Shown here piece by piece: positions 4,417-50,577 of a stretch of DNA of 52,740 nt. The stretch is from Armatimonadota bacterium. Lineage in GTDB: Bacteria > Sysuimicrobiota > Sysuimicrobiia > Sysuimicrobiales > Humicultoraceae. The translations under genes were made by a program, and so were the position numbers. The DNA is taken from positions 1 through 52,740 of the forward strand of contig JBBIJB010000010.1 of the NCBI GenBank assembly GCA_037446215.1. Direction: 5' to 3'. Below the pieces are notes generated by a model. It did no database searches, had not been told where the DNA came from, and saw only the letters and a program-made list of their open reading frames with translations. How positions within the stretch are numbered: the first letter of the stretch is position 1; each line of letters starts with the position of its first letter.

Positions 4417-4739
4417 CACTCGGCCTTTCGCTTCTGCTCTACGAAGTTCAGACGGAGGTTGGCGATGAGGTTGTCGAGATCCTTGCGCTCGGAGTCGCCC
4501 ACGCGCGGCTTCAGCACCTCGGCCAGGGCCGAGGCGGCGTCTATGGCTATCCTCGCCTCGTCGAAGTCGCGCTCTACCTTCCCGGTCGCGGGGTTGGGGA
4601 CCAGCCCCATCGTCTCCCAGGCCTTGGCGGAGAGCAGGTGTATGCAGGAGGCGACGAGCGTCCCGGAGTCGGGCAGCGGCGCGCCCCTGGCCTCCTCCTC
4701 CGGCTTGTGCTCTGCCTCTTCCTTCGGTGCGTCGGTCAT
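4416..4739 (-). CDS. DUF1844 domain-containing small acidic protein
   Basis: 107-aa ORF. Acidic N-terminus followed by LVASCIHLLSAKAWETMGLVPNPATGKVERDFDEARIAIDAASAL, which is the DUF1844 pattern. Packed tightly between the permease and the peptidase. Confidence 0.7.
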   Translation of the reverse strand: MTDAPKEEAEHKPEEEARGAPLPDSGTLVASCIHLLSAKAWETMGLVPNPATGKVERDFDEARIAIDAASALAEVLKPRVGDSERKDLDNLIANLRLNFVEQKRKAE

Positions 4740-4742
4740 CGC

Positions 4743-8456: not shown

Positions 8457-8574
8457 AGGTCAAGGACAGCAGCGCAGCCACCTCAGACAGCCCGCAGGGA
8501 AGGAGGGCGGGGCAGCTGACCGTGAAGACTGGCCTCCCTGGCCTCCGCCTGCGTTTCGCGATGCGGTAGGCCGG

Positions 8575-8856
8575 GTGGTCGTGGCTCCCAACGAGATGGA
8601 CGAGACAATTGGAGAGCAGGCGACCGAACGGCGTGACCGGAGCCGGCAGCTTGTTGGGGCGAACGCCGATCCCGATGCGTCTGCCTACTCCGTGGCGCAC
8701 GACCCCCGAGTGCCCCTGCAGGCCATGGATAGGTTCACGGCCATCGTGCTCAGGGACGACGCCCACAAGCGCTTCGCTGCGTTCAAGCGACTGCATCGCG
8801 CAGACGAGCATGAGGGCACCGCCACGCCCGAGCAGGGTCGGGAGGACGCATCGTGA
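8575..8856 (+). CDS. Hypothetical small protein (about 86-93 aa), possibly translationally coupled to the HD-GYP regulator
   Basis: ORF with GC3 near 78% by hand count. Its stop overlaps the GTG of the downstream gene (atcGTGAcc). Alternative ATG at 8596. No family recognised. Confidence 0.3.
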   Translation: MVVAPNEMDETIGEQATERRDRSRQLVGANADPDASAYSVAHDPRVPLQAMDRFTAIVLRDDAHKRFAAFKRLHRADEHEGTATPEQGREDAS

Positions 8857-11723
8857 CCCTACCGCTTCGCGTGATGATCCTCGATGACGGGCCGGCAGAC
8901 GCCGAGCTGATGCTCGATGAGCTCAGGCAGGGCGGGTTTGTCCCTGACTGGACACGCGTCGAGACAGAGGCGGAGTTCGTGGACGCCCTCGACCCGAAGA
9001 TCGACGTCATCCTGGCCGACTACAACCTCCCCGGCTTCAGCGGGCTTCGGGCGCTGCGGCTCCTGAACGAGCGCGGCCTCGACGTGCCCTTCATCCTGGT
9101 CTCCGGCACCATCGGCGAGGAAGTAGCGGTCCGCGCCATGCAGGAGGGCGCCTCGGACTACCTGATCAAGGACCGCCTGGGCCGGCTGGGACAGGCCGTC
9201 TCCATGGCGCTGGAGAGGCGCAAGACGAGGCGCGCGCTCACTGAGGCGGAAGGCCGCTACAAGAGCCTCTTCGAGGGCGTCCCCATCGGGCTCTATCGCT
9301 CCACGCCCGAGGGCAGGTTCCTGGACGTGAACGACGCGCTGGTCGAGCTGCTGGGCTATCCGGACCGCGCCTCCCTGCTGGAGGTGAGCATTCGGGAATT
9401 CTACGAGCATCCCGAAGACCGGGACACGCTTCTCTCGAGCGCCGTGGAGGCAGGCGTCGTCCGGGACGCCGAGATCCGGCTGCTGAGGAGAGACGGCGAG
9501 GAGATCTGGGCCTCGCTCAATACCAGGGCGGTGAAGGGCGCCTCGGGAGAGGTCCTCTACTACGAGGGGAGCGTCGAGGATATCACCGCCCGGAAGCGCG
9601 CCTCGGAGGCACTGGCTGAGCGCGAGCGCTTCCTCTCGACGCTCAACGAGATCACCCGGGCCTCCCTGGAGTCGTGGGATGTCGATTCGATGTTGCAGAC
9701 GCTGGCCGAGCGGTTGATGGAGCTATTTGGGGCGGACGGCTGCTTCATCAACGCCTGGGACGAGGAGCGCCGGGTGCCGATGCCGGGGGCGGCAGCAGGC
9801 ACGGTGAGTGGGGCATACCCCGGGACGGTGCTTGCTGAGCCCGGAGAGCCGACGATCACAGGCGCAGTCCTGTCGGCGGGCCGAGCCCTTCCGGTGGAGG
9901 ACTACCAGAACAGCCCTCTCGTCAGCCGGCGCATCGCCGCGTCCTACCCGTGCAGGTCGGTCCTGGGCCTGCCCCTCATCTCAGGGCACTACAAGCTGGG
10001 GGTGGCGACTATCACCTTCGATGCGCCCCACCGGTTCACCGAGGAGGAGATGGCGCGCGGCGAGCAGGCCGCCCGCCAGATATCGCTGGCGATAGCAAAG
10101 GCCCGGCTCCTGGACGAGTCGGAGCGAAGGGCCGAGGAGCTGGCGGCCGCGGTCAAGGTGACCGGCGCGGTGCTGCGCACGCGCGACCTGGACGAGCGCA
10201 TAGAGGTCATTCTTCGCGAGATGATGTCGTTCGCCAAGACCGAGTATGGGGCCGCCTTCCTACTGGACGGGGACGGGGTCAGGCTGTGCGCGGCGCGCGG
10301 CTTCGCAGGATCCCTTCATGTCGAACTGCAGGGCCTCGGCAGGGACCGGGGAGAGTGGCTCCGGACCCCGCGCACGCTGAGCGGTAGCGCGGGCCAGCCG
10401 GATCTTCCCGAGTTCGCCCGACGCGAGGGCATCAGGTCATGGATCACGCTACCCCTGAGCCAGCCCCTCGCCCCCGGCCCATCAGAGGCGGAGTTCGCGG
10501 CCTCCTTCGTCCTGGCGAGCCGCGACGCGGACGTCGTCACCGACGAGCGTCTGGCGGCCCTCAGGCGGATGACCCCACCGCTCCGGCTTGCAGTGGAGAA
10601 CGCCCGGGCCTACCGCCGGGCGCAGGAGCGCATGGTGAGGCTGCGCTCCCTCCACGAGATCGACAGGGCCATCACCTCCAGTCTCGACCTCCGTACGACG
10701 CTCACGGTGCTCCTTGCTGAGGCCTGCTCGCAGCTCGACGTGGATGCCGCGGCGGTGCGCCTGTTCAACGCGCACACGCGCTCCCTGGAGTTCGCCGCCG
10801 CCAGGGGTTTACCGGAGAGCGAGTTGAGGCGCGCGGCCCGCGCCTCACGTCACAGCCACGCCTCACAGGCCGCCACGGAGAGGCGTGTAGTGCACGTACG
10901 GCATCTTGAGAAGGAGCAAGCAGACCCCCTCCTGGCGTACCTCTCGGCCGAGGGGTTCGCAGACCTCCTGGCGGTTCCTCTCATCGCCAAGGGGCGCGTG
11001 ACGGGCGTGCTGGAGCTCATGCACCGGAAGCCGCTGGACCGGGACCCCGACTGGAAGGGGTTCCAGGAGAGCCTGGCGGCCCAGGCGGCCATCGCGCTGG
11101 ACAGCGCGGCCATGTTCGAGGAGCTGCAGCGCTCCAGGGCCGAGGTGATCCTCGCCTACGATTCGACGCTAGAGGGGTGGGCCCGTGCCCTCGACCTGCG
11201 GAACGACGAGACCGAGGGCCGCACGGAGAGGATCTCCGAGGTCACCCTGCGGCTGGCCCAGGAGCTTGGTGTCCGCGAGGTAGACCTGGAGCAGATCCGC
11301 CGGGGGGCGATGCTTCACGACATAGGCGAGATCGCGGTCCCGGAAGCCGTCCTGCTCAAGCCCGGGCCCCTGACCGAGGAGGAGTGGGTCGAGGTGCGGC
11401 GCCACCCCACGGTGGCCTTCGAGATGCTCTCGGCGATTCCGTACCTGCGTCCCGCTCTCGACATACCCTACTGCCACCACGAGAGGTGGGACGGATCCGG
11501 CTATCCGCGCGGCCTGTCGGGCGAGCAGATTCCCCTGGCGGCCAGGATCTTCGCGGTCGTGGATGTCTGGGAAGCGCTCACCTCGAGCCGCCCCTACCGT
11601 GAGGCCTGGCCCGAGGCGAAGGCGCTGGCGTACATCCGCGAGAAGTCGGGCAGCCAGTTCGACCCGCGGGTCGTCGAAGCGTTCCTGCGGGTGATGACCG
11701 CTACCCCTCGACCGCCTGCCTGA
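8853..11723 (+). CDS. Response-regulator receiver / PAS / GAF / GAF / HD-GYP multidomain protein (putative c-di-GMP phosphodiesterase)
   Basis: GTG with GGGAGGA RBS. REC domain (VMILDDGPADAE...DVILADYNLPGFSG...SDYLIKD). PAS domain (VPIGLYRSTPEGRFLDVNDALVELLGY...YYEGSVEDITARK). Two GAF-like regions. HD-GYP domain (MLHDIGEIAVP...HHERWDGSGYPRGL). Confidence 0.9.
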   Translation: MTLPLRVMILDDGPADAELMLDELRQGGFVPDWTRVETEAEFVDALDPKIDVILADYNLPGFSGLRALRLLNERGLDVPFILVSGTIGEEVAVRAMQEGASDYLIKDRLGRLGQAVSMALERRKTRRALTEAEGRYKSLFEGVPIGLYRSTPEGRFLDVNDALVELLGYPDRASLLEVSIREFYEHPEDRDTLLSSAVEAGVVRDAEIRLLRRDGEEIWASLNTRAVKGASGEVLYYEGSVEDITARKRASEALAERERFLSTLNEITRASLESWDVDSMLQTLAERLMELFGADGCFINAWDEERRVPMPGAAAGTVSGAYPGTVLAEPGEPTITGAVLSAGRALPVEDYQNSPLVSRRIAASYPCRSVLGLPLISGHYKLGVATITFDAPHRFTEEEMARGEQAARQISLAIAKARLLDESERRAEELAAAVKVTGAVLRTRDLDERIEVILREMMSFAKTEYGAAFLLDGDGVRLCAARGFAGSLHVELQGLGRDRGEWLRTPRTLSGSAGQPDLPEFARREGIRSWITLPLSQPLAPGPSEAEFAASFVLASRDADVVTDERLAALRRMTPPLRLAVENARAYRRAQERMVRLRSLHEIDRAITSSLDLRTTLTVLLAEACSQLDVDAAAVRLFNAHTRSLEFAAARGLPESELRRAARASRHSHASQAATERRVVHVRHLEKEQADPLLAYLSAEGFADLLAVPLIAKGRVTGVLELMHRKPLDRDPDWKGFQESLAAQAAIALDSAAMFEELQRSRAEVILAYDSTLEGWARALDLRNDETEGRTERISEVTLRLAQELGVREVDLEQIRRGAMLHDIGEIAVPEAVLLKPGPLTEEEWVEVRRHPTVAFEMLSAIPYLRPALDIPYCHHERWDGSGYPRGLSGEQIPLAARIFAVVDVWEALTSSRPYREAWPEAKALAYIREKSGSQFDPRVVEAFLRVMTATPRPPA

Positions 11724-13469: not shown

Positions 13470-14642
13470 GTGTCGTCGAAGGCGGGCGCTTTGGTCAGGG
13501 TCGTGCTGGTAGCGACCGTGGCGGTGACAGTGCTGCTGGGGGCGGCGCCTGCCCTGGCGGTGGAGACGCGCGCGGGCCAGGCAGTCCGAGTCGGCCCGGA
13601 CGAGGTCGTGAACGACGATCTCTACGTCGCCTCCAGCCGCACGACCGTGGAGGGCCGTGTGCGGGGCGACCTGATCTCGCTGGGCGGCAGCCTCCGGCTG
13701 CGCGGCAGCGTGGACGGCGACGCCCTCGTAGCCGCCGGGACCGCGGAGGTGTTGGGCGCGGTTGGGGCGAGCCTGCGGGTGATTGCGGGCACCCTCGTCG
13801 TCGAGGGGGCAGTCGGGAGGGATGCGACGGTTGCCGGCGGTACCGTGGAGTTCGAGAGGGGCTCTCGCATCGCCCGCGACGTCGCGGTCGCCGCCGGTAC
13901 GGTGTCCCTGAGGGGAGAGGTCGGGCGCAACGCGCACCTGGCCGGCGGGCGGACCGAGATTTCGGGCACCGTCGGGGGGAACGTGGTCGTGCGCGGGGGC
14001 GAGGTCGTCCTTCTTCCCACGGCGGTCGTGCGGGGCAGCCTCACCTACAGCAGCGACCGTCCCGTTACGATGTCCCCGGGCGCCACCGTAGTGGGAAGGG
14101 TCGTCGAGCGTCCCTACGCCGTGCCCAGGCCCTCGGCCGCGCAGGCGCTAAGGGGGGTTCGCGTAGTGCTCGGCATCCTCGACTTCTTCTGGCTGCTGGT
14201 CCTGGCCCTCGTGCTGGTCGCCGTGGTGCCCGGTCCCGCGCTGGCGAGCGCGGGGGCGCTCCGCGGCCGGCCCTGGGCCTCCCTGGTGATCGGCCTCGCG
14301 CTCGCCTTCCTGATCCCGGTCCTGACGATGATGCTCACACTGACCCTGGTCGGGATCCCGCTGGCGATAGTGGTCGTGCTCGGCGGCACGCTGGCCGTCT
14401 TCCTGGCGCACGTGGCCGCGGCGCTCGCGATCGGACAGCTCCTCTTCCCCAGCCTGCGCTCACGGTACTCGGAGGCGGCGATCGGAGCAGGGTTCATCGC
14501 GATCGCCACGAACCTGCCGGTCGTGGGCTACGCTCTGCGGATGCTCGTGCTCGCCTTCGGGCTGGGCGCCCTCGTGGTGGCGTGGTGGGGGAGGCGTACT
14601 CCTCCTGCGCCGGCCCCGACCGACCGCCCGATGGTGGCCTGA
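13470..14642 (+). CDS. Membrane protein: signal peptide, bactofilin-like Gly/Val beta-helical repeat ectodomain, C-terminal polytopic domain
   Basis: GTG start after GGGAGG. Signal peptide VVLVATVAVTVLLGAAPALA. About 190 aa of degenerate repeats (GRVRGDLISLGGSLRLRGSVDGDALVAAGTAEVLGAVGASLRVIAGTLVVEGAVGRDATVAGG...), followed by 4-5 predicted TM helices. Confidence 0.7.
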   Translation: MSSKAGALVRVVLVATVAVTVLLGAAPALAVETRAGQAVRVGPDEVVNDDLYVASSRTTVEGRVRGDLISLGGSLRLRGSVDGDALVAAGTAEVLGAVGASLRVIAGTLVVEGAVGRDATVAGGTVEFERGSRIARDVAVAAGTVSLRGEVGRNAHLAGGRTEISGTVGGNVVVRGGEVVLLPTAVVRGSLTYSSDRPVTMSPGATVVGRVVERPYAVPRPSAAQALRGVRVVLGILDFFWLLVLALVLVAVVPGPALASAGALRGRPWASLVIGLALAFLIPVLTMMLTLTLVGIPLAIVVVLGGTLAVFLAHVAAALAIGQLLFPSLRSRYSEAAIGAGFIAIATNLPVVGYALRMLVLAFGLGALVVAWWGRRTPPAPAPTDRPMVA

Positions 14643-16783: not shown

Positions 16784-18886
16784 ATGACCCGACGCAGCAG
16801 CCCTGAGACAGCCACCCGCGACCGCCTGCTCGAGGCGGCGCTGGAGGTCTTTGCGAGGCTCGGCTACCACGGCGCCACCGTCGCCGACATAGTCGCGGCG
16901 TCGGGCAGCTCCAAGGGCGCCTTCTACCACTACTTCCCGAGCAAGCAGGGGATCTTCCTCGAGCTCCTCCGGAGCCTCTCAGACATGGTCGAGGCGGGTG
17001 TCGAGGGCGCCATCGCGCAGGAGAGGGGGGGGCTCGCTAAGGTAGAGGCCGCCCTGGCGGTGGTGCTCGGGGCCGTCTCCTCGCAGCGAAGCCTGGCGAG
17101 GATCCTCCTGATCGAGGCGGCGGCGCTGGGGCCGGAGTTCGAGGAGGGCAGACTGGCAATCCACCGCAGGTTCGCGGCCCTGATCAAGCGTCACCTGGAT
17201 CGAGCCGTGGCCGAGGGCGCCATCCCGGCGCAGGACACCGAGACCGCGGCAACCGCATGGATCGGTGCCGTGAACGAGATCCTGACCCAGCGGCTCGCGG
17301 CCGGTGGAGAGCTGATGCCCCTGCTGCCGCCGGTGCGCGCCCTGCTCCTCCGCAGCATCGGGGCCGGAGCAAGGGGCGACGGCGACCCCGCCCTAGCGGC
17401 CGGCGCCCGGCTGAGAGAGCGGGCGCTGGAGGCCGCGGGCAGGGCACGGGGGTTGGGGCGGCCCGTGCTGGCGTGGGTGTGCCTGCCGGTGCCAGCGGCC
17501 GATCCGGTCTTCTTGTTCGAGCGGCTGCGCTCGGCGCTCGGCGAGGCGGCGCTATGGTATCAGCCGCGGGAGCCGTTCAGCCTGGTGGCGGGAGGCAGGG
17601 CGTGGTCACCGCAGGCGGCCGGCCCGCCGAGGTTCGAGCAGGCGAGCCTGGCGTGGCGGGCACTCGCGGAGGAGTCCGTGGGAGGAGCGCCGGAGGGCTG
17701 GGGCACCGGCCCGGTGCTCTTCGGCGGCTTCGCCTTCGCTCCCGACCTCGCCCCGGGCGAGTCGCCGGCGGCCGCAAGCTGGCGCCAGTTCGGCACGGCC
17801 TCCATGGTGCTGCCGGACATCGCGGTGGCCTGCGCCGGCGACTCGAGCCTCCTGACGCTCTCCGTGCTCGTGGATGAGCAGGGGCGCGCGATGCGCGGCG
17901 GCTTCGACCTGACCACCCCTTCCGGCGCGAACGCGTGGGTCAGGAGTTGCATGGACCTCGTGGGAGGAGCTGCCGCGGAGGATCCCCAGGGTCCCAGGAG
18001 GGACTCCCAGGGAGTCGGCAGGCGCCATCGGTCCCCTTTCGCCTGCGCGGTGGAGGAGTTGCCCACAGCCAGCGCCTGGATGGAGGCCGTGGCCTCGGCG
18101 GCCCGGGCCGTGGCAGACGGCGAGCTGGAGAAGGTCGTCCTGGCGCGCGCGCTGAGGGTCCAGGGAGCGATTCCGGCCGCGGCCGAGATGCTGGGCAGGC
18201 TGGCGGCGGTCCATCCCGGATGCACCCTCTACGCGGTGAGCAGGGGGGAGGCGTGTTTCCTCGGCGCCACGCCTGAGCGGCTCGTCCGTCTGCGCCGGGG
18301 CAGGGTGAGCGCCGACGCGCTGGCCGGAAGCGCCCCGAGGGGAAGCACCCCGGAGGAGGACCGCAGGCTTGGGGAGCTGCTGCTCTCCAACCCCAAGGAT
18401 CGGCTCGAGCATGCCCTGGTGGTGGAGGAGGTACGCCGCGCGCTGATGGGGAGCTGCGACTCCGTCTCCGTCGGCGGCGAGCCGGTTCTCCTCAGGACGG
18501 CAAACGTTCAGCACCTGCACACGCCGATCGCAGGGACGCTGCGTGGGAGCCTGACGGCAGTAGACCTGGCCGGTGCCCTACACCCGACCCCTGCCGTCGG
18601 CGGGGTGCCGGTCGCGGCCGCACTGGAGTGGATCGACCGCCACGAGTCGGTGCCGCGGGGATGGTATGCCGGGCCGCTCGGGTGGGTGGACCTGAACGGA
18701 GACGGCGAGTTCGCCGTCGCCCTGCGCTGCGCCCTGGCAGGGCCCGGCGAGGCGCTGCTCTACGCGGGCTGCGGGATAATGGCGGACTCCGAACCGGAGG
18801 ACGAGTACGAGGAGTCCGCCCTCAAGCTGCGGGCGATGCTGGCCGCGATCGGCCTCGCCGGTCAAGAGAGAACGGCAGGGAAGTGA
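16784..18886 (+). CDS. menF: TetR-family DNA-binding domain fused in frame to isochorismate synthase (MenF)
   Basis: Single 700-aa stop-free ORF. Residues 1 to about 205 are TetR ([47 protein letters not shown]). Residues from about 215 to 700 are the chorismate-utilising enzyme ([51 protein letters not shown]...[19 protein letters not shown]). Confidence 0.85.
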
Positions 18887-22454: not shown

Positions 22455-23363
22455 ATGCCGGCTTCCCACAGCGTGTCGCGGCGGGCCGCCTGGCTGATGG
22501 CGGCGCGCATTCCCACGCTGCCCGCGGCGGTGGCACCCGTCCTGGTCGGGACGGCGGCGGCGGCCGGCGACGGAGTCTTCCTGCTCCTGCCGGCCCTGGC
22601 GGCGCTGGCGGCCGCAATCCTCATCCAGATCGGCACGAACCTTCACAACGATGCCGCCGACTTCGTGCGCGGGGCCGACACCGCGGAGAGGCGCGGGCCG
22701 CGGCGCGCCGCGCAGAGCGGGCTGCTGACGCCGCGCCAGGTGCTTGCCGGCGCCTACTCGTGCCTTGCGCTCGCAGCGGCATGCGGGCTCTATCTCGTCT
22801 TCCTGAGGGGCTGGCCGCTGCTCCTGGCCGGTGCCCTCTCCCTGGCCGCGGCGGTGGGGTACACTTCCGGGCCGTGGCCGCTCGGATACAAGGGTCTTGG
22901 CGAGCTCTTCGTATTCCTGTTCTTCGGGGTGGTCGCCGTGGTCGGGAGCGACTACGTGCAGACCGGGGCGGTGCGGGCCGTCGCCCTGGCGGCTTCCGTG
23001 CCGGTGGGAGCGCTGTCCACCGCCATACTCCTACTCAACAACCTGCGAGACATCGATACCGACAGGGTAGCGGGCAAGCGGACCCTGGCCGTGCGGCTCG
23101 GACGCGTGGCGACGCGCATGCAGTACCTCGGCTGCCTCGCCGCGGCCGTGGTCGCACCGGCGGCGATGCGCGCTGCCGGCCTGCTGGGGCCGCTGTTCTG
23201 GCTGCCGTGGATCACGCTGCCGATGATGGCCGGGCTTGCCCGCACGGTGCTGCGTGAGGACCAGGCGCCGGCGCTCATCCGGGCGCTGAAGCGGACCGCG
23301 CTCCTGCTGCTCGTCTACGGCGCACTCCTGGCGGCGGCCCTCCTGGCAGGGACGCACCGGTGA
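22455..23363 (+). CDS. menA: 1,4-dihydroxy-2-naphthoate polyprenyltransferase (MenA)
   Basis: UbiA-family polytopic protein. NLHNDAADFVRGAD and NNLRDIDTDRVAGKRTLAVRLG are the two Asp-rich prenyltransferase motifs. ATG at 22455 lies 5 nt after the menB stop. Confidence 0.9.
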   Translation: MPASHSVSRRAAWLMAARIPTLPAAVAPVLVGTAAAAGDGVFLLLPALAALAAAILIQIGTNLHNDAADFVRGADTAERRGPRRAAQSGLLTPRQVLAGAYSCLALAAACGLYLVFLRGWPLLLAGALSLAAAVGYTSGPWPLGYKGLGELFVFLFFGVVAVVGSDYVQTGAVRAVALAASVPVGALSTAILLLNNLRDIDTDRVAGKRTLAVRLGRVATRMQYLGCLAAAVVAPAAMRAAGLLGPLFWLPWITLPMMAGLARTVLREDQAPALIRALKRTALLLLVYGALLAAALLAGTHR

Positions 23364-25684
23364 AAGGCGGCCAGGAGCCCTCCACTCGCATCGCCGGGCT
23401 GCCGGAGTGGGTCCTGGGCGCGGGCGGGTCGCCCCAAGGGCCGGACTGGCTCTCGCAGCGCGCTGCCGCCAATCCCGACGGCCTCGCGCTTCTCTGTGGG
23501 GCGGACCGTCTCACCTTCGGCGACCTGGACCTCCTGGCAAGTGGTGCCGCCCGGGAGCTAGCATCGCTGGGCGCCGGCCCAGGATCAAGGGTCGCGCTCC
23601 TCCTGCGCAGGGGGATCGCATTCACCGCGACGATGCACGCGCTCACCCGACTGGGCGCCCTGATGGTGCCCATGAACGGCCGCCTTGCGGTGGGCGAGCT
23701 CGCCTGGCGGCTGCGTGACTCCCGCGCCGAGCTCCTCCTTCACGACGGGGCTTTCGCCGATGCGGCGGCGACCGCTGCCGCCGGCGTGGAGGGACTACGC
23801 CTCGCGCGGGCGCCGTCGGGATCGGGGAGCCCCTCGGGCGAGGGCCCTCCAGCGGCCGGGTTCGATCTCGAGGCGCCGCAGTGCCTGATCCATACCTCGG
23901 CAACGACCGGCAGGCCCAAGGGCGTGCTGCTGACCTACGGCAACCACTGGTGGAACGCGATCGGATCCGCGCTGAACCTGGGGGTCAGCAGGGAGGACCG
24001 GTGGCTCGCGCCGCTCCCTCTCTATCATGTCGGAGGGCTGGCGATCCTCTGGCGCAGCGTCATCTACGGCATCCCGGCGGTGGTTCACGAAGCCTTCGAT
24101 CCAGAAGCCGCGAACCGCGAGATCGACCAGGGCGGGATCACGATCGTCTCGGTGGTGAGCACGATGCTCCGGCGTATGCTGGATGCGCGAGGCCCTCGCC
24201 CCTATCCGGATACGCTGCGCTGCGTCTTGCTCGGAGGGGGGCCGGCGCCCAGGGGGCTGATCGAGGAGTGCCTCGAGCGTGGTGTCCCGGTGGCATGCAC
24301 CTACGGCCTGACCGAGGCGGCCTCGCAGGTCGCCACCCTGCCGCCCTCCGAGCTCCGAGCCAAGCTCGGGTCAGCCGGGCGCCCGCTGCCGCCGTTCGAG
24401 ATCCGCATCGAGGCGCCTGATGGGGGAGGGGATTGCGAGGCCGGATCGGCCGGCGAGATCCTCGTCCGCGGCCCGGCAGTGATGCTCGGATACGCGGGCC
24501 GCCCCGAGGCGAGCGCACAGGCCCTACGCGACGGATGGCTGCACACCGGGGACCTCGGCTACCTCGACGGCGACGGCTACCTGTACGTCCTCGACAGGCG
24601 CGAAGACCTGATAGTCTCCGGCGGCGAGAACGTCTACCCTGCCGAGGTCGAGGCGGTGCTGCTGGAGCACCCCCTCGTGGAGGAGGCGTGCGTCGTTGGG
24701 ATCTCGGACGACGAGTGGGGGCAGAGGGTGGTCGCTGCGGTCCGGCCCCGTCCCGGGCCGCGGCCGGACATCGAGGAGTTGAGGAGGTTCTGCGCACGGC
24801 GGATAGCGGGCTATAAGCTCCCGAGCCGGCTGATCCTGACCGGCGAGATCCCCAGGACGCCGTCCGGCAAGATCAAGAGGTCCGAGGTTCGGCGTCGCGT
24901 CGAGCGAGCGGGCGCGCAAGGGTCGTCGGGTGCCCCCACGGCCGAGCACCTCCTGCCCGGCGGTCTCGTGCCGGAGAGGCGGAGTTGGGTACGCGAGGCG
25001 TTCCACAGCATATCCGGAACCTACGACCTGCTGAACCACCTGCTGAGCGGGGGCATGCACGTCCTCTGGAAGGCCGCCGCAGTCCGCGAGGCCGGCCTCA
25101 GGCCGGGCGGGGTCGGGCTGGACGTCTGCTGCGGGACCGCCGACCTCCTGATCCCGATGGCCCGCGCCGCCGGACCGGGCGGCCGGGCGCTGGGCGTGGA
25201 CTTCGCAGCGGGCATGCTCGAGGTGGCCGGGCGGCGGGTCGGTGAAGCGAGGCGCCGTACGCCGGGCCTTGCCGCCGTGGGGCTTGCCTGCGGAGACGCC
25301 GAGTCGCTGCCGGTCTGCGACGGCTCGGTCGATGCTGTGACCTTCGCCTTCGGGCTGCGCAACGTGGCCAGGCCCGAGACCGCGCTGCGCGAGGCGTTCC
25401 GGGTCCTGAGGCCGGGCGGCCGCCTGGTCGTTCTCGAGTTCGGCCACCCCGGCTCCAGGGTGATCCGCGCCGCGTACGACTTCTACTCGCAGGCCATCGT
25501 CCCGCGCCTAGGTGGCCTGATCTCGGGCCGTCGCGACGTCTACCGGTACCTCCACGACTCGATCCGCAGGTGGCCGGATGCGGCGGCGCTCGCCCGGTCG
25601 ATCGGCGAGGCCGGGTTCGCGACGGTCCGCTACAGGCCGATCTTCGGCGGGATCGCCGTCCTTCACGTGGCCGAGAAGGCCTAG
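23360..25684 (+). CDS. menE: o-Succinylbenzoate-CoA ligase (MenE) fused in frame to demethylmenaquinone methyltransferase (MenG/UbiE)
   Basis: Single 774-aa ORF; its GTG overlaps the menA stop (GTGA). Adenylation motifs IHTSATTGRPKGV, YGLTEA, TGDLGYLDGDGYLY and PSGKIKR run to about aa 515. A roughly 25-aa linker follows. The UbiE/MenG domain then shows VREAFHSISGTYDLLNHLLSGGMHVLWK, LDVCCGTADL, FGLRNV and LRPGGRLVVLEF. Confidence 0.85.
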   Translation: MKGGQEPSTRIAGLPEWVLGAGGSPQGPDWLSQRAAANPDGLALLCGADRLTFGDLDLLASGAARELASLGAGPGSRVALLLRRGIAFTATMHALTRLGALMVPMNGRLAVGELAWRLRDSRAELLLHDGAFADAAATAAAGVEGLRLARAPSGSGSPSGEGPPAAGFDLEAPQCLIHTSATTGRPKGVLLTYGNHWWNAIGSALNLGVSREDRWLAPLPLYHVGGLAILWRSVIYGIPAVVHEAFDPEAANREIDQGGITIVSVVSTMLRRMLDARGPRPYPDTLRCVLLGGGPAPRGLIEECLERGVPVACTYGLTEAASQVATLPPSELRAKLGSAGRPLPPFEIRIEAPDGGGDCEAGSAGEILVRGPAVMLGYAGRPEASAQALRDGWLHTGDLGYLDGDGYLYVLDRREDLIVSGGENVYPAEVEAVLLEHPLVEEACVVGISDDEWGQRVVAAVRPRPGPRPDIEELRRFCARRIAGYKLPSRLILTGEIPRTPSGKIKRSEVRRRVERAGAQGSSGAPTAEHLLPGGLVPERRSWVREAFHSISGTYDLLNHLLSGGMHVLWKAAAVREAGLRPGGVGLDVCCGTADLLIPMARAAGPGGRALGVDFAAGMLEVAGRRVGEARRRTPGLAAVGLACGDAESLPVCDGSVDAVTFAFGLRNVARPETALREAFRVLRPGGRLVVLEFGHPGSRVIRAAYDFYSQAIVPRLGGLISGRRDVYRYLHDSIRRWPDAAALARSIGEAGFATVRYRPIFGGIAVLHVAEKA

Positions 25685-44536: not shown

Positions 44537-45289
44537 ATGCCGCAACTGCCGATGCTGGCACTGGTCGCGCTGGCAGCCGTCGTCTACTCCTCGATCGGCT
44601 TCGGGGGGGCCTCGGCGTACCTCGCCATCCTCAGCCTCTACGGGGTACCGCACGCCGAGCTGTCAACGAGCGCGCTGGTGCTCAACATCCTCGTGGCGGG
44701 CGTCGCAGCGTTCAACTTCGCGCGCGCCGGCCATCTTTCGGGAAGGGTCACCTGGCCGTTCGTGATCGCCTCCGTCCCCGCGGCCTTCCTGGGAGGGCGG
44801 CTGCCGGTGGGCGCTTCGGTCTACGGCCTGTTGCTCGCGGTCTCGCTCTTCCTGGCCGCGCTGCGGCTGTGGTGGTCCCCGGAGGCATCAGCGGCCGGGG
44901 AGGAGGGCAACAGGCCGGTCGGCTGGTCGCTGGCCCTGGTGGCGGGCGCCGCCATCGGCGTCCTGTCGGGGATAGTCGGCGTGGGCGGCGGGATCTTCCT
45001 GAGCCCCCTGATCATCCTGGCCGGGTGGGCGGGCCCCAGGCGGACCGCGGCCACCGCGGCGGTGTTCATCGTGGTCAACTCGATCGCCGGGCTCGTGGGC
45101 CGCGCGGCGCGCGGCGCGCTCGTCGTCGGCGACCTCGGCCTCCTGATCGCCGTAGCCTTCGCCGGGGGCGTCGTTGGGTCGAGGCTCGGAGCACGGAGGC
45201 TCCTGCCGGTGCACCTGCGGCGGGTGCTCGCGCTGATCCTGCTCACGGTGGCCTACCGCAACTTCAGGCTCTGGCTCGGGGCGCTCTAG
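44537..45289 (+). CDS. TauE/SafE-family sulfite/anion exporter
   Basis: 250-aa polytopic protein with the internally duplicated pattern [13 protein letters not shown]... / [17 protein letters not shown] typical of TauE/SafE (DUF81). Confidence 0.85.
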
Positions 45290-45331: not shown

Positions 45332-45361
45332 TCATTGGAGAATACCCTCAGGTGGATGCCC

Positions 45362-46849
45362 ATGAAGCTTGGAGAGATCCTTGTGGAACTGGGAGTCGTG
45401 TCCTCCGACCGGATTGAGGAGGCGCTCCGGCTACAGCGCGAGGCAGGGGGCAGGCTCGGGGAGATCCTCACCAGCCAAGGGTGGGTGCTCGAGGACGACG
45501 TCTGCTGGGCGCTCAGCAACCAGCTCGGACATCCCTACGTCTTCCTGACACCCGAGATCATAGATGTGACGGCGGTCAGGGCGGTTCCCGAGGAGCTGCT
45601 GCGCGCCCACCTCGTGGTTCCGATCCTCATGTCGGAGGGCGAGCTGACCCTCGGAATGGCCGACCCCACCGACGAAGTCGCCGTGGAGACGATAGGCGGC
45701 TACACCGGCATGCAGGTCAGGCGGGCGCTAGCGCGGGGCTCCAACATATCAGCGATCCTCGACCACGCCTTCTCGCAGGCGCCGCCCGAGCCCGAGATCG
45801 CAGACGACCGGGAGCCCGGAGGGCGGCAGCTGGTGAGGTTCCACCTTGTCCAGGCGGCGCAGCAGGGAGCGACCGCGGTCTACCTCGATCCGGGAAGCAA
45901 CGGCCGGGCTGCAGTCTCCTACCGGCTGCGGGGGACGGTCGTGGGGCGGCCCAGCGCGGCCCGTGAGGTCTACCTGGACGCGGTCCACTACATCCGCCAG
46001 AAGGCCAGGCTGGACGGCGAGACGGGGAGCGGGCAGTTCGTGTCCAACGTGGCAGGCCCTCCCATGGCCGTGGGCATCTCGCTGGTGGCCACGTATTTCG
46101 GGACCGCCGTGGCCATGGCGCTGCATCCGGAGAGGCAGCAACCCCCGCCGCCCGAGGCGCTCGGGCTGGCGTTGCCGGCCGGGCTCGAGGAGGCCAAACG
46201 CGGGCTGTACATCGTGGCCTGCTCGGACTCCCACACCAGGCAGACGACCTTGCACAGCCTGCTTCGGCTTAGACCCCAGGGCCGCCTCGTCACCGTCGAA
46301 GGGGCGGTCTACTCCGTCTACCCCCACGCGGCGCAGATCCCGGTCGGTCTGTTCGAGCCCGCCGCCTACGCGGTGGCGATACGAGGCGCGGCGGCGATCG
46401 GCCCGGAGACCCTGCTCATAGACGATCTCCCGGACACGGAGGCCGCGGCGGCGGCACTGGCCGGCGCGAGGAGCGCAGTGGTGCTGGCCGGATGCGCCTG
46501 CGGGAGCGTGCGTGCCATGCTGGCGCGCTACGAGCGCGTGCTCTCCGCCACGGAGGTGACCGGCCTGGTACGGGGGGTCCTGGCGGTGCGGCCGGTGAGG
46601 GCGCTCTGCCCGGCGTGTCGCGGCGAGAGGGGCCCCTCGGGCAGAAGGGGCTGCGACTCCTGCCTCTTCACCGGGTTCGGAGAGGCACACCTGCTCAGCG
46701 AGTACCTGGAGGCCCCGCACTCACTCGGCACTCTTCCCGCCGACGCCTATCCTGTGACGATGCACGCTCAGGCCGAGGCGCTTGTGGCTTCCGGCAAGGT
46801 TTCGCGCGACGAGGTTCTGCAGGCCCTGGAGGGCTACCCGTGGACATAA
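45362..46849 (+). CDS. PilB/GspE-family protein with an intact tandem MshEN (c-di-GMP-binding) N-terminus and a degenerate ATPase core
   Basis: ATG 6 nt after AGGTGG (the track start is TTG 45335). MKLGEILVELGVVSSDRIEEALRLQ-REAGG-RLGEILTSQGWVLEDDVCWALSNQ, then a T2SSE_N-like region. The C-terminal half is colinear with the neighbouring PilT but lacks Walker A, Asp box, Walker B and His box consensus. CPAC...CDSC is retained. Confidence 0.8.
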   Translation: MKLGEILVELGVVSSDRIEEALRLQREAGGRLGEILTSQGWVLEDDVCWALSNQLGHPYVFLTPEIIDVTAVRAVPEELLRAHLVVPILMSEGELTLGMADPTDEVAVETIGGYTGMQVRRALARGSNISAILDHAFSQAPPEPEIADDREPGGRQLVRFHLVQAAQQGATAVYLDPGSNGRAAVSYRLRGTVVGRPSAAREVYLDAVHYIRQKARLDGETGSGQFVSNVAGPPMAVGISLVATYFGTAVAMALHPERQQPPPPEALGLALPAGLEEAKRGLYIVACSDSHTRQTTLHSLLRLRPQGRLVTVEGAVYSVYPHAAQIPVGLFEPAAYAVAIRGAAAIGPETLLIDDLPDTEAAAAALAGARSAVVLAGCACGSVRAMLARYERVLSATEVTGLVRGVLAVRPVRALCPACRGERGPSGRRGCDSCLFTGFGEAHLLSEYLEAPHSLGTLPADAYPVTMHAQAEALVASGKVSRDEVLQALEGYPWT

Positions 46850-47937
46850 CAGATCTCCTCGTGATGACCAAGGAGCGAGGGGCCTCCGACCTGCACATCA
46901 CCTCCGGCGCGCCCCCCACCCTCCGAATACACGGTCGCCTGGTGAGACTGGATCACGCGACCTACTCGCGAGAACAGGTCCACACGCTGCTCTACGACAT
47001 CCTTACCGACGAGCAGAAGGCCCGCTTCGAGGAGGCCCACGACCTCGACTTCTCGCTCGAGCTGCTCGGGGTCGGGCGGTTCAGGGTGAACGCGTTCATG
47101 CAGCGCCTGGGCGAGGGGATGGTGATGCGGCTGATCCCCTCCAGGATCCAGACGCTCGACGATCTCGCGATGCCGCCCGTCCTCAAGGACCTCTCCCTGA
47201 AGAGCAAAGGGCTGGTCCTGGTCACCGGCCCGACCGGGTCGGGCAAGTCCACCACGCTGGCCGCGATGGTGGACCATATGAACGAGCACCGCGAGGAGCA
47301 CGTGATAACGATCGAGGACCCGATCGAGTTCGTCCACTCTCCCAGAAGGTGCAACATCAACCAGCGGGAGGTCGGCGCGCACACCCGCTCGTTCGCCGCG
47401 GCGCTCCGGGGCGCGCTGCGCGAGGACCCTGATGTAGTGCTCGTCGGCGAGATGCGCGACCTCGAGACGATCGCCCTTGCCATCACCGCGGCGGAGACCG
47501 GGCACCTCGTGCTCGCAACCCTGCACACCAACAGCGCGGCGCAGACGATAAGCCGCGTGGTGGACGTATTCCCTCCGCACCAGCAGGAGCAGATAAGGGT
47601 GCAGCTCTCCGAGGCTCTCCTGGGGGTCGTAGCGCAGACGCTCATCCCGCGGCTGGACGGAAAGGGGCGCGTCGCCGCCGTCGAGGTGATGGTGGCGACA
47701 CCCGCAATTCGCAACATGGTCCGTGAGAACAAGGTCCACCAGATCCCCTCTGCCATACAGACAGGCGCCAGGGAGGGGATGCAGAGTCTCGACCAGCACC
47801 TGAAGACCCTGGTGAAGCTCGGCAAGGTCTCCCGCGACGAGGCGGTCAGGCGTGCCGTCGAGAAGGAGGCGTTCGGCCAGGAGCGCGCCCTATCCGCCCT
47901 GCGCGGCGAGGCCGGCGGATTCCTGGCGAGGGACTAG
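46840..47937 (+). CDS. pilT: Type IV pilus retraction ATPase PilT
   Basis: The GTG at 46840 gives MDITDLLVMTKERGASDLHITSGAPP, the canonical PilT N-terminus. It overlaps the upstream gene by 10 nt. Walker A GPTGSGKST, EDPIEF, VLVGEMRD, TGHLVLATLHTN and the PilT signature AIRNMVRE. Confidence 0.92.
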   Translation: MDITDLLVMTKERGASDLHITSGAPPTLRIHGRLVRLDHATYSREQVHTLLYDILTDEQKARFEEAHDLDFSLELLGVGRFRVNAFMQRLGEGMVMRLIPSRIQTLDDLAMPPVLKDLSLKSKGLVLVTGPTGSGKSTTLAAMVDHMNEHREEHVITIEDPIEFVHSPRRCNINQREVGAHTRSFAAALRGALREDPDVVLVGEMRDLETIALAITAAETGHLVLATLHTNSAAQTISRVVDVFPPHQQEQIRVQLSEALLGVVAQTLIPRLDGKGRVAAVEVMVATPAIRNMVRENKVHQIPSAIQTGAREGMQSLDQHLKTLVKLGKVSRDEAVRRAVEKEAFGQERALSALRGEAGGFLARD

Positions 47938-47955: not shown

Positions 47956-49023
47956 ATGCGCATAGACGACCTGCTGGAGCACATGGAGGCGCGCGACGCC
48001 TCCGACCTCTACCTGAAGTCCGGCATCCCTCCGATGCTGAGGATCTCGGGAGAGCTTGTGGCGCTCGAAGGGCAACCGCTCGACGACGCTGCCGTAGGGC
48101 GGCTCGCCGACCAGATGATGACCGACAGGCACCGGGCCGACTTCGAGGCGCGCAGCCGCGCCGACATCGCGTACAGCTCGCCTCGGCTCGGCCGCTTCAG
48201 GGCCAACGCCTACATCCAGCGGGGGTCGCCCGCGGTCGTGATCCGGAGGGTGAGGACGCTCATCCCGTCGTTCGAGGAGCTGCGTCTTCCGCCAGTTGTG
48301 AGCTCGCTGGCGTTGCTCCCCCGCGGCCTCGTCCTCGTGGTCGGCCAGACCGGGGCAGGGAAGTCGACGACCCTCGCCGCGATGATCTCCTACCGCAGCC
48401 GCGAGCGAACAGGGCACATCGTCACGATCGAGGATCCGATCGAGTTCGTCTACACGGACGAGCGGAGCATCGTCAGCCAGAGGGAGATCGGCACCGATTC
48501 GGAGTCCTACAGCCTGGCCCTGCGGGACGCGCTGCGACAGGCACCCGACGTGATCATGATCGGCGAGATCCGGGACGAGGAGAGCGCGACCGCCGCGGTT
48601 CACTTCGCCGAGACGGGCCACCTGGTTCTCAGCACCGTCCACGCGACGAACGCCAGCCAGACCCTGGAGCGGATGCTCCACTTCTTCCCGGCCTCCGCCC
48701 ATGACGGAGTCGCGCTGCAGCTCTCGCTCAACCTGAGCGCAATCGTCTCTCAGCGCCTGATCCCTCTCAAGGACGGCCGGGGCCGGGCCGTGGCTGCCGA
48801 GGTGATGCTTGCGACCCCGCGGGTCAGGGAGCTGCTCCGAAAGCAGGACCTGGCGGGCATCCGCGGCGTCATGAGCTCGCCGGCCGGGATCCAAGAAGGG
48901 ATGCAGACCTTTGACCACGCTCTCTTCCGGCTAATCAAGGAGGGCCTGATCGACGTCGACACCGGGCTCGGCGCCGCCGACAGCCCCAGCGACCTTCGGA
49001 TGCGGTTGAAGGGGCTCGTCTAG
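47956..49023 (+). CDS. PilT/PilU-family ATPase paralogue (PilU-like; lacks the AIRNLIRE signature)
   Basis: MRIDDLLEHMEARDASDLYLKSG, Walker A GQTGAGKST, EDPIEF, IMIGEIRD, TGHLVLSTVHATN. The AIRN position reads RVRELLRK. Confidence 0.88.
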   Translation: MRIDDLLEHMEARDASDLYLKSGIPPMLRISGELVALEGQPLDDAAVGRLADQMMTDRHRADFEARSRADIAYSSPRLGRFRANAYIQRGSPAVVIRRVRTLIPSFEELRLPPVVSSLALLPRGLVLVVGQTGAGKSTTLAAMISYRSRERTGHIVTIEDPIEFVYTDERSIVSQREIGTDSESYSLALRDALRQAPDVIMIGEIRDEESATAAVHFAETGHLVLSTVHATNASQTLERMLHFFPASAHDGVALQLSLNLSAIVSQRLIPLKDGRGRAVAAEVMLATPRVRELLRKQDLAGIRGVMSSPAGIQEGMQTFDHALFRLIKEGLIDVDTGLGAADSPSDLRMRLKGLV

Positions 49024-49041
49024 ACGGATCCCGGGATCCGT
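49024..49041. terminator. Perfect 18-bp palindrome ACGGATCCC|GGGATCCGT between convergent stops (bidirectional hairpin candidate)
   Basis: It fills the gap between the pilU-like stop (49021-49023) and the cyclase stop (49041-49043). As RNA it gives a 7-bp stem with a CCGG loop. No U-tract. Confidence 0.4.
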
Positions 49042-50552
49042 CAGGCGGTGGCGGCGACCACCCTGTCGCGCCCCTGCGACTTAGCCCTGTAGAGCGCCGA
49101 GTCGGCCGCCCTCAGCAGCGTCTCGGCGGTGCTGCCGTGATCGGGGAAGGCGGCAACCCCCAGCGAGATGCTGATGCCTCCAAGGGACTGCCCCCTATAG
49201 GGGACATTCAGGCCCTTGGCGGCCATCCGCATCTCCTCTGCCCTCTCCGTCGTCGCCTCCAGCGAGGCCTCGGGGAGGATCACCGCGAACTCCTCGCCGC
49301 CGTAGCGGCAGACGATGTCTTCCCTCCTGAACCTCGTACCCAGCAGGTCTCCGAGGGCTCGCAGCAGCGCGTCGCCCGCCAGGTGGCCGAACGTGTCGTT
49401 GAACTGCTTGAAGTGGTCGAGGTCCAGCATGATGATTCCCACCTGCGCGTGCCGCCTGTCTGCCCTGTGGAGCTCCCTGTCCAGGCTCTCCTCCATGTAG
49501 CGCCGGTTGTAGAGCCCCGTGAGCGGATCGCGTATCGACTGGTGGCGCAGGCTCTCGCGCAGCTTCAGGTTGGCCAGGCTGAGCGCTATCTGCTCGGCCA
49601 CGGAGGCGGCCAGGTTGTGCTCGGCGGCCTGATCGGTGCCGCCCGCCCGCTCAGCCACGGACCTCGGAGGCGAGTGGAGGGTGAGGACCCCGAGTGCCTC
49701 GCCCTGCGCCATCATCGGCACGCACACGTAGCGCCGCGCCGACTGCGGGTCCACGTGCCTGCACAGCGCGCCGCCCTGCTCCTCGCTCACCGAGTGGGTC
49801 CTGCCGCGCCGAAGCGCCCAGCAGTCCTCAGGCGCGAAGATCCGGTCGTCTCCCCCGTGCTCGCCCCAGACGGCCACCGCCTCGAGCAGCTTCTTGGATG
49901 GGTTGAGCAGGCTGACCACACCAGCCCTGCGGCGGAACAACCGGGGCATGCGCTCGGCCAGTACCGCGAACGCCTCCTCTCCCGACTGGCAGCTCTGGAG
50001 CAGATCGACCATCTCGCTGAGGGACTCCATCTCCACCGTGCGCCCCTCGAGCTCCTCGACCAGCGCGGTCAGCCTCTCGTTGGCTATCCTGGACGACTCC
50101 TCGGCCCGCCGCCTGTCCGTTATGTCCTCGATCACGCCCTCGTACCAGGAGATGCGGCCCTGGGCGTCCCGCACCGCCCTGGAGGTGTCACGCGCCCAGA
50201 CGATCTCGCCGTCCCGTTTCTTCAGGCGGAACTCGAAGCCCCGCACCGCGTCACCCGTCGCCACCAGCGCCTGCCACCTGGCCCGATCTGCCGGGTCCTC
50301 GTAGAGGCCGTCAACGCTGCCCACGCTCAGGAGGGAGTCGAGGCTCTCGAAGCCCAGCAGGCCCGCCAGGGCCGCGTTGGCGTCCAGCAGGCGCCCGGAC
50401 GGCGTCGATACGTAGACGCCGATGGGGATCCTGTCGAAGAGGCGGCGGAGGTTGGAGGCCTCTCCGGGCGACCAGGTTATCGCCTCCGGGGCTCCCGCTG
50501 TCCCACCGGACGCCTGGGTTGCCCTTGGCTTCTTCTTACCCATCGCGCACAC
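49041..50552 (-). CDS. PAS-GAF-GGDEF diguanylate cyclase
   Basis: PAS domain ([27 protein letters not shown]...[18 protein letters not shown]), a GAF-like middle region, and GGDEF with an intact active site ([12 protein letters not shown]...[11 protein letters not shown]...[11 protein letters not shown]). Start is GTG 50552 or ATG 50543. Confidence 0.9.
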
Positions 50553-50577
50553 CGCTCCCCACCCCCGCCCGCTTGAA

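Follow-up and report, generated by a model that had tools for sequence, protein, structure and literature searches.

In the 52,740-nucleotide (nt) stretch of DNA that is called the window below (contig JBBIJB010000010.1 of assembly GCA_037446215.1, an Armatimonadota bacterium placed by GTDB in the Humicultoraceae family of the Sysuimicrobiota), a gene at positions 45362..46849 of the forward strand encodes a relative of the pilus extension motor PilB of 495 amino acids (aa). In this protein, hereafter pseudo-PilB, a seemingly intact MshEN module for binding cyclic di-GMP (c-di-GMP) is followed by an N2 domain (N2D), an ATPase core whose catalytic motifs have been replaced and a tetracysteine (Cys4) zinc motif, an anatomy drawn from the open reading frame (ORF), Pfam and NCBIfam profiles, motif alignments, and a structural model with its fold search, to which a ratio of nonsynonymous to synonymous substitution rates (dN/dS) of 0.13 adds a signature of constraint. 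Our preferred reading, to which we give a probability of about 0.6, is that pseudo-PilB is a c-di-GMP-gated pseudo-ATPase, gated by phosphorylation as well in most species, that engages either the PilT/PilU retraction motors or the PilM/PilC platform and thereby biases pilus extension versus retraction. The reading frame itself is of coding type (third-position GC content, GC3, of 0.86, in surroundings of 69% GC), and the Shine–Dalgarno-like AGGTGG at 45350..45355 of the forward strand, 6 nt before the ATG at 45362, favors that start, which had been assumed from the outset, over an alternative TTG at 45335.

The c-di-GMP module is what gives this protein its predicted input. Residues 2–54 (45365..45523, forward strand) form an MshEN_N module made of two 24-residue motifs, KLGEILVELGVVSSDRIEEALRLQ at residues 2–25 and RLGEILTSQGWVLEDDVCWALSNQ at residues 31–54, separated by the 5-residue spacer REAGG, and the NCBIfam c-di-GMP motif model NF053729 recognizes it at 63.9 bits (E 8.6e-18, cut-off 38). 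The Pfam MshEN family PF05157 matches at 57.9 bits (cut-off 23.1), the MshEN_C/T2SSE_N subdomain occupying residues 56–140 (45527..45781, forward strand), and phmmer relates the MshEN region to the GSPII domains of PilF, to the PilB of Geobacter, and to the MshEN structure of Vibrio cholerae (5HTL). The published consensus consists of two copies of RLGxx(L/V/I)(L/V/I)xxG(L/V/I)(L/V/I)xxxxLxxxLxxQ with five residues between them (PMC5013675), from which pseudo-PilB deviates at K2, I18, T37, W41, and V47. When the key positions are scored with relaxed position classes, taken from this consensus and its later revision (PMC11731258), 13 out of 14 are matched, W41 being the sole miss, and 12–14 out of 14 are kept in 28 of the 29 family members; NF053729 likewise scores 58.5–79.3 bits in the three orthologues that were scanned, against the same cut-off of 38. 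The lysine that opens motif I is shared with the GSPII-B domain of Thermus PilF (dissociation constant of 6 nM) and with the PilBs of Chloracidobacterium and Deinococcus; it favors affinity and has led to a consensus widened to (R/K/L)LG..., and its presence in pseudo-PilB is compatible with nanomolar binding of the kind seen in PilF GSPII-B (PMC11731258). The module thus looks functional and lies near the high-affinity consensus, and pseudo-PilB would be expected to bind c-di-GMP.

The ATPase core presents the opposite picture. Motif by motif, alignment with canonical PilB and MshE sequences indicates that the Walker A motif GPTGSGKTT has become CSDSHTRQT, without a single glycine and with an arginine for the Walker lysine (remnant ACSDSHTRQTT, 46217..46249, forward strand, glycine-rich loop gone in the alignments and the model alike), that the Asp box EDPVE has become EGAVY, that the Walker B and catalytic glutamate segment VGEIRD has become IDDLPD, and that the His box TGHLVLSTLHT has become SAVVLAGCACG, with the loss of both histidines. 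The arginine-finger motif of N2D, RLPQDGR, is replaced as well by a shorter and nonconserved ETGSGQF, a loss that extends the list drawn up earlier. In the structural model, the P-loop is cut down to three residues, as the helix that usually comes after it begins three residues too soon, at residue 290. The protein scores 54.5 bits against the PilB equivalog TIGR02538 (cut-off 675.65) and 44.7 bits against the GspE equivalog TIGR02533 (cut-off 630.25), that is, more than 570 bits short of either. The CPAC...CDSC tetracysteine motif is kept (46607..46663, forward strand), is of PilB/GspE type rather than PilT type, and has its four cysteines C416, C419, C431, and C434 invariant. Overall, these replacements suggest that pseudo-PilB is devoid of ATPase activity.

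Weak as its resemblance to working motors has become, the C-terminal half is a genuine PilB/GspE homologue. Pfam T2SSE (PF00437) matches it at 26.6 bits, barely over the gathering score of 24.9; BLASTP aligns it colinearly with the PilT encoded next to it (25% identity over 247 aa, E 2e-6); and the orthologue P0003, 49% identical to pseudo-PilB, is colinear with the canonical PilB encoded beside it (27% identity over 451 aa, E 3e-25). An AlphaFold model, with a predicted local confidence (pLDDT) of about 80 for residues 1–408 and low confidence for residues 409–471, retrieves GspE, PilB, and PilF structures as its best Foldseek matches (E of about 1e-15), the topmost being PDB 4PHT, a GspE subdomain in complex with GspL. 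Both profile and model thus assign to this half the N2D plus C-terminal domain (CTD) fold typical of PF00437. In these respects the original prediction, made by a model from the letters of the window and a list of their ORFs, holds: the tandem motifs and their spacer read as it had described them, every catalytic element it had named as replaced is replaced, the zinc motif it had reported is there, and the homology it had claimed to PilT is borne out, as are the profile searches and the monomer model that it had put forward as checks.

This combination is not peculiar to one genome. A word-indexed homologue search returned only about eight relatives, badly under-reporting the family, and we relied instead on a scan of GTDB species representatives and on an exhaustive profile search. 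The scan recovered orthologues at 27 species-level loci (L010–L036), whose named carriers are Candidatus Geohabitans, Fervidifonticultor, and Tepidifontimicrobium, from two families of Candidatus Sysuimicrobiota (formerly CSP1-3), many of the remaining carriers being labeled Armatimonadota. The catalytic motifs are degenerate in the same way in all 27, none of which has GxxGxGK[ST]; instead, most share conserved replacements of their own (of the form hhGC.D..hR.ThLH, W.LET.PVY, ADLhhVDD, and VLAGH.Q.D), and an arginine occupies the position of the Walker lysine in every orthologue of the main clade. Against the 83%-identical orthologue of locus L004, the Nei–Gojobori dN/dS of pseudo-PilB is 0.13 overall, 0.09–0.14 in MshEN, and 0.18 in the dead CTD, next to 0.15 for the neighboring TauE gene and 0.08 for PilT; pseudo-PilB is under purifying selection, its ATPase half included. 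The survey of orthologues and the selection analysis had both been proposed with the original prediction, and both came out in its favor. Within the family, judging by aligned sequences, conservation is inverted with respect to real PilBs: mean pairwise identity is 0.62 and 0.58 in the two MshEN subdomains and 0.41 in the CTD core, versus 0.35, 0.30, and 0.60 among 30 sampled canonical PilBs, so that the sensor is the most and the ATPase core the least conserved part, the motor scaffold being kept under looser constraint. A subclade at L032–L036 (e.g., Candidatus Tepidifontimicrobium thermophilum, Sysuimicrobiaceae) departs from the rest: its proteins are about 470–480 aa long and have no receiver domain, the Glu of the Asp box is lost (VVVLAGA), the first cysteine pair reads ALCRCA, with cysteines one residue apart rather than in CxxC, and the pilT–pilU pair lies 3 nt downstream of pseudo-pilB.

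The genomic context ties pseudo-pilB to the retraction genes. The next gene, at 46840..47937 of the forward strand, encodes a PilT retraction ATPase (TIGR01420, 485.9 bits) with all motifs intact (GPTGSGKST, EDPIE, GEMRD, TGHLVLATLH, and AIRNMVRE), and 18 nt after it a second, PilU-like paralogue (47956..49023, forward strand, 410.4 bits) has intact ATPase motifs (GQTGAGKST, EDPIEF, GEIRD, and TGHLVLSTVH) and no AIRNLIRE, both exceeding the TIGR01420 cut-off of 319.1 bits. The original prediction had placed pilT 10 nt downstream of pseudo-pilB, and here it needs correcting: its homologues (VDITDLL) and the gene as called in contig L005, which is 99% identical, both point to the GTG at 46840 as the start of pilT, which makes for an overlap of 10 nt with the end of pseudo-pilB, stop codon included. 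At 25 of the 27 species-level loci, the distance from the pseudo-pilB stop to the start of pilT lies between −27 and +28 nt, and in most of the loci pilU is the gene after that; L030, whose contig is truncated, and L027 depart from this arrangement. In L027 (Candidatus Fervidifonticultor quintus, 3191–5356 and 8536–10104), the pseudo-PilB, fused to a receiver domain (REC), is encoded without a downstream pilT, and a separate cluster of REC, GGDEF, HD-GYP, PilT, and PilU genes, which may be a rearranged module, lies about 3–7 kb upstream. As a control, the same scan finds pilT directly downstream in just 11 of 47 canonical pilB loci. The overlap or near-abutment with pilT persists even where protein identity falls to about 31–35%, across two families of the phylum, and, as seen below, in unrelated lineages, which argues for a functional coupling. 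This strict and translationally coupled synteny supports a PilT-linked role, as far as gene order can, and it does not discriminate among capping, poisoning, recruitment, and action at the platform.

Degenerate MshEN–PilB-like proteins also exist outside the phylum. When 1.84 billion representative proteins were searched exhaustively with a profile, more than 50,000 T2SSE proteins came back, and among the best 147 of these, 47 have no canonical Walker A. Once fragments and Sysuimicrobiota are removed, many unrelated MshEN–PilB-like proteins with a degenerate P-loop, Walker B, and His box are left (e.g., P0038, P0040, P0041, P0049, P0072, P0096, P0115, and P0166), some of which retain GxxGxGR[ST]. 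In all four of the unrelated lineages whose loci were examined, on contigs of 40–51% GC, an intact PilT gene of about 350 codons begins 1–35 nt after the degenerate gene (L090, 6001–8649; L092, 598–3400; L093, 6001–8749; and L094, 6001–8706; proteins P0040, P0038, P0072, and P0096), and three of the four keep a c-di-GMP motif above threshold. It is conceivable, and we propose it tentatively, as an idea that may well prove too broad, that MshEN-bearing pseudo-PilBs with a PilT partner make up a widespread and unrecognized class of c-di-GMP receptors, in Candidatus Sysuimicrobiota and in these lineages of lower GC, which would provide a missing direct route from c-di-GMP and, by way of the fused receiver, from two-component signals to the retraction motor or to platform occupancy; they might then serve as nonhydrolyzing subunits or stacked rings that gate PilT/PilU. 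Locus L090 also encodes GAF histidine kinases, a REC–GGDEF protein, and a second, canonical PilB. A further protein, P0014 (701 aa, from an ENA metagenome), is partly degenerate (Walker A GPEGSGRT, Walker B VVLLRGLPD, no His box), has a poor MshEN motif I, and ends in zinc-ribbon repeats and a receiver domain, both at its C-terminal end.

Signaling genes accompany many of these loci. An N-terminal receiver domain with its phospho-acceptor aspartate is fused to most orthologues, and genes for REC–HD-GYP proteins, hybrid histidine kinases, or GGDEF proteins stand beside about half of the 27 loci, the first two directly upstream in several of them and GGDEF genes nearby in some. In the window, a predicted PAS–GAF–GGDEF diguanylate cyclase whose GGEEF and RxxD sites are both intact (Pfam GGDEF, 175.9 bits) is encoded convergently at 49041..50552 of the reverse strand, where it abuts pilU, and is a likely local source of c-di-GMP. 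Between the pilU stop and the convergent GGDEF stop lies a perfect 18-nt palindrome, ACGGATCCCGGGATCCGT (49024–49041), which overlaps the GGDEF stop codon by one base, has no T tract, and could be a bidirectional terminator hairpin. In L005 (GCA_037444465.1), 84 unrelated bases (13663–13746) replace window positions 49024–50576 at this site, between pilU and katG. Since the distant relatives L022 and L024 each have a homologous GGDEF gene after pilU, likewise convergent, the L005 strain has probably lost its copy. A second enzyme of c-di-GMP turnover, a 956-aa REC–PAS–GAF–GAF–HD-GYP protein, is encoded about 34 kb upstream of the operon (8853–11723, forward strand).

On this basis, the following mechanism can be envisioned. 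Sensing of c-di-GMP by the intact N-terminal MshEN module would be the selected function of a catalytically dead PilB paralogue, to which the fused receiver domain would add phosphorylation sensing in most orthologues; translational coupling would deliver pseudo-PilB in a fixed proportion to PilT and PilU; and the retained N2/CTD scaffold, together with the zinc motif, would bind a partner, either PilT/PilU hexamers or the PilM/PilC platform, for which PilB and PilT compete. The level of c-di-GMP would then set the balance between extension and retraction, and high c-di-GMP might restrain retraction, by analogy with MshE and PilT in V. cholerae. The original suggestion of a c-di-GMP receptor pseudo-ATPase is in this sense supported, as a prediction, by the intact module, the replaced motifs, the conserved orthologues, and the dN/dS of 0.13.

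Several points weigh against this reading. Which partner pseudo-PilB engages, and in which direction it would regulate, are guesses, and the present evidence does not separate an effect exerted directly on PilT/PilU (in a mixed hexamer, as a cap, or as a stack) from recruitment of PilT to the platform or from competition with PilB there. Synteny inside one phylum is not phylogenetically independent, and since pilB–pilT adjacency is ancestral in some Terrabacteria, as the 11 loci out of 47 illustrate, the linkage could in part reflect descent and not function. The window holds no intact pilB and no pilC, pilM, pilin, or other further pilus gene by tblastn and by Pfam searches of 20 further ORFs, so that the pilus machinery of this host is deduced from its relatives. 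The PAS–GAF–GGDEF gene is dispensable, since the 99%-identical strain of contig L005 lacks it. All family members come from uncultured metagenome-assembled genomes (MAGs), and the model is of low confidence in the region 409–471.

With regard to the missing motor, an intact PilB, which the original prediction had suggested looking for, is encoded divergently upstream of the pseudo-pilB orthologue in the related genome L001 (TIGR02533, 637 bits, all motifs present). The second c-di-GMP motif of this canonical PilB (L001, 8031–9773, reverse strand) is itself degenerate (HLARVILEMEVEPRREVAAAVAAH): the protein scores 29.8 bits against NF053729 versus the cut-off of 38 and matches 8–9 of the 14 key MshEN positions, which would make it an intact motor with a degenerate sensor, the reverse of its neighbor. 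A general division of labor, whereby the real PilB would have lost c-di-GMP binding and pseudo-PilB taken it over, can be rejected as a rule, because 109 of the 118 canonical homologues of the L001 PilB keep 13–14 of the 14 key positions; the sequences place this pattern only in the Geohabitans-like lineage.

Among the alternatives, the one that fares best is that of a dominant-negative competitor at the platform, which would dock through its N1/MshEN_C part onto PilM/PilC in place of the real PilB and block extension in a c-di-GMP-dependent manner, without direct contact with PilT. We regard it as unlikely on the whole, yet as the most serious of the rivals: MshEN_C, at 0.58 mean identity, is among the best-conserved parts of the family, the homologous subdomain of GspE binds GspL in the very structure (4PHT) that tops the fold search, the Cys4 motif of PilB/GspE type is kept, and a real PilB coexists with the pseudo-PilB of L001. 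However, it is pilT, rather than pilB, pilC, or pilM, to which the gene is coupled, and this coupling recurs in four independent lineages. It should be added that such competition and the c-di-GMP-gated regulator that we favor are not mutually exclusive. Less probable still is a c-di-GMP scaffold with an output other than pili, such as exopolysaccharide (EPS) or biofilm genes, for which the pilT neighborhood would be a relic of an ancestral pilB–pilT operon. Such an operon is consistent with the adjacency found in 11 of the 47 canonical loci; the PilB of Myxococcus xanthus acts as an EPS signaling protein independently of its motor role (PMC5544727); and the Humicultoraceae are the sole Sysuimicrobiota family detected in biofilms (PMC11604079). 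A relic would nevertheless be hard to reconcile with a pilT overlap or abutment that persists to about 31–35% identity, in two families of the phylum and in unrelated lineages.

The remaining two alternatives concern the ATPase site itself. Arg at the Walker lysine position, the Glu of the Asp box, and the DD of Walker B could in principle make up a noncanonical site in an active or nucleotide-binding ATPase: the three corresponding residues, R293, E313, and D355, are invariant in a seven-sequence alignment, the arginine recurs throughout the main clade, and some of the other degenerate lineages keep GxxGxGR[ST]. We nonetheless find this very improbable, as all glycines of the P-loop are lost and the predicted loop is down to three residues, neither the arginine fingers nor the catalytic Glu nor either histidine survives, and no part of the family is less conserved than the CTD. 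R293, E313, and D355 hint at a constrained pocket, perhaps, and this is speculation, a salt-bridge network that locks one conformation. Finally, the idea that a real pilB is decaying here, or was corrupted in sequencing or assembly, has a single point in its favor, the very low T2SSE score (26.6 bits), and is rejected by a frame kept open in 27 species and across separate assemblies, by a dN/dS of 0.13, by the conservation of the degenerate motifs themselves, and by the GC3 of 0.86.

When set against known systems, pseudo-PilB shares with MshE of V. cholerae, PilB of Chloracidobacterium and Myxococcus, and PilF of Thermus both the domain order (MshEN_N, MshEN_C, N2D, CTD, and Cys4) and the tandem 24-residue c-di-GMP motif; unlike them, its motifs for ATP binding and hydrolysis and its arginine fingers are replaced, it is encoded with pilT–pilU rather than with pilC or pilM, and it is the sensor, not the motor, that is conserved. 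Its mirror image is XpsE/GspE of Xanthomonas, an active ATPase whose degenerate MshEN no longer binds c-di-GMP (PMC5013675): both belong to the same two-module family and have one module without its ligand site, yet XpsE combines a dead sensor with a live motor where pseudo-PilB would combine an intact sensor with a dead motor. The canonical PilB of L001, with its c-di-GMP motif at 29.8 bits, resembles XpsE in this respect. In terms of proposed role, the closest parallels are the FimX–PilZ–PilB relay of Xanthomonas and Pseudomonas and the response regulator DrdR of Xanthomonas, an accessory regulator that couples signals to pilus motors (PMC13507683), since each is a nonmotor relay of a c-di-GMP or two-component signal to PilB or PilT, and FimX also works through degenerate enzyme domains. 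Their folds are unrelated to that of pseudo-PilB (GGDEF–EAL, PilZ, and REC–REC), and they are neither motor paralogues nor translationally coupled to pilT. There is also a conceptual likeness to the degenerate GGDEF and EAL receptors. In the archaellum, the KaiC/RecA-like ArlH/FlaH binds ATP and is a partner of the motor ATPase ArlI/FlaI, and would thus be comparable as a nonmotor partner of P-loop fold that modulates a hexameric motor of the PilT/VirB11 superfamily; it differs from pseudo-PilB in belonging to another protein family, in still binding ATP, and in having no c-di-GMP module. Wang et al. list fusions of MshEN to REC, HD-GYP, CheA, and other domains, inactivated ATPase domains not being among them, and our literature searches, which were aimed at degenerate, inactive, or pseudo PilB/T2SSE proteins, found no description of any, in line with the earlier impression that no example had been described. 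The description of the Sysuimicrobiota mentions neither pili nor c-di-GMP (PMC11604079).

Elsewhere in the window and in the related loci, a few further observations can be reported. A gene of the TauE/SafE sulfite-exporter family (44537–45289, forward strand) lies directly upstream of the operon, as in L004 and L005, and a TauE/SafE gene is also found within 10 kb of the operon in the more distant relatives L003, L011, and L027. No riboswitch or other RNA element was detected upstream, as there are neither Rfam matches at the gathering threshold nor tRNAs anywhere in the window, and a scan for promoters and terminators yielded nothing above chance. Two ORFs of the forward strand join domains that are usually carried by separate proteins, one of 700 aa (16784–18886) with N- and C-terminal TetR domains and a chorismate-binding enzyme domain, the other of 774 aa (23360–25684) with an AMP-binding enzyme domain and a UbiE/COQ5 methyltransferase domain; these may be real fusions or over-extended ORFs. 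In a MAG of Candidatus Edwardsbacteria (L067, 8105–15090), three full-length canonical pilB genes stand in tandem and are followed by pilT.

Proteins of this kind are at present annotated automatically as “PilB,” “GspE,” or “ATPase, T2SS/T4P/T4SS family,” which inflates the pilus-motor content inferred for MAGs; other labels given to them are “GspE/PulE family” and “hypothetical.” They also extend to the secretion-ATPase superfamily the pseudoenzyme principle, known so far in c-di-GMP signaling for degenerate GGDEF and EAL receptors. As a matter of fact, the known control of type IV pili by c-di-GMP operates mainly via the extension motor, through binding to the MshEN domains of MshE and PilB or through FimX–PilZ–PilB. 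Pseudo-PilB probably represents a regulator of pilus dynamics that is under the control of signals and new to description, and as such it bears on the control of retraction by PilT/PilU and on the exchange of PilB and PilT at the platform, for which it would offer both a ready tool and a testable hypothesis.

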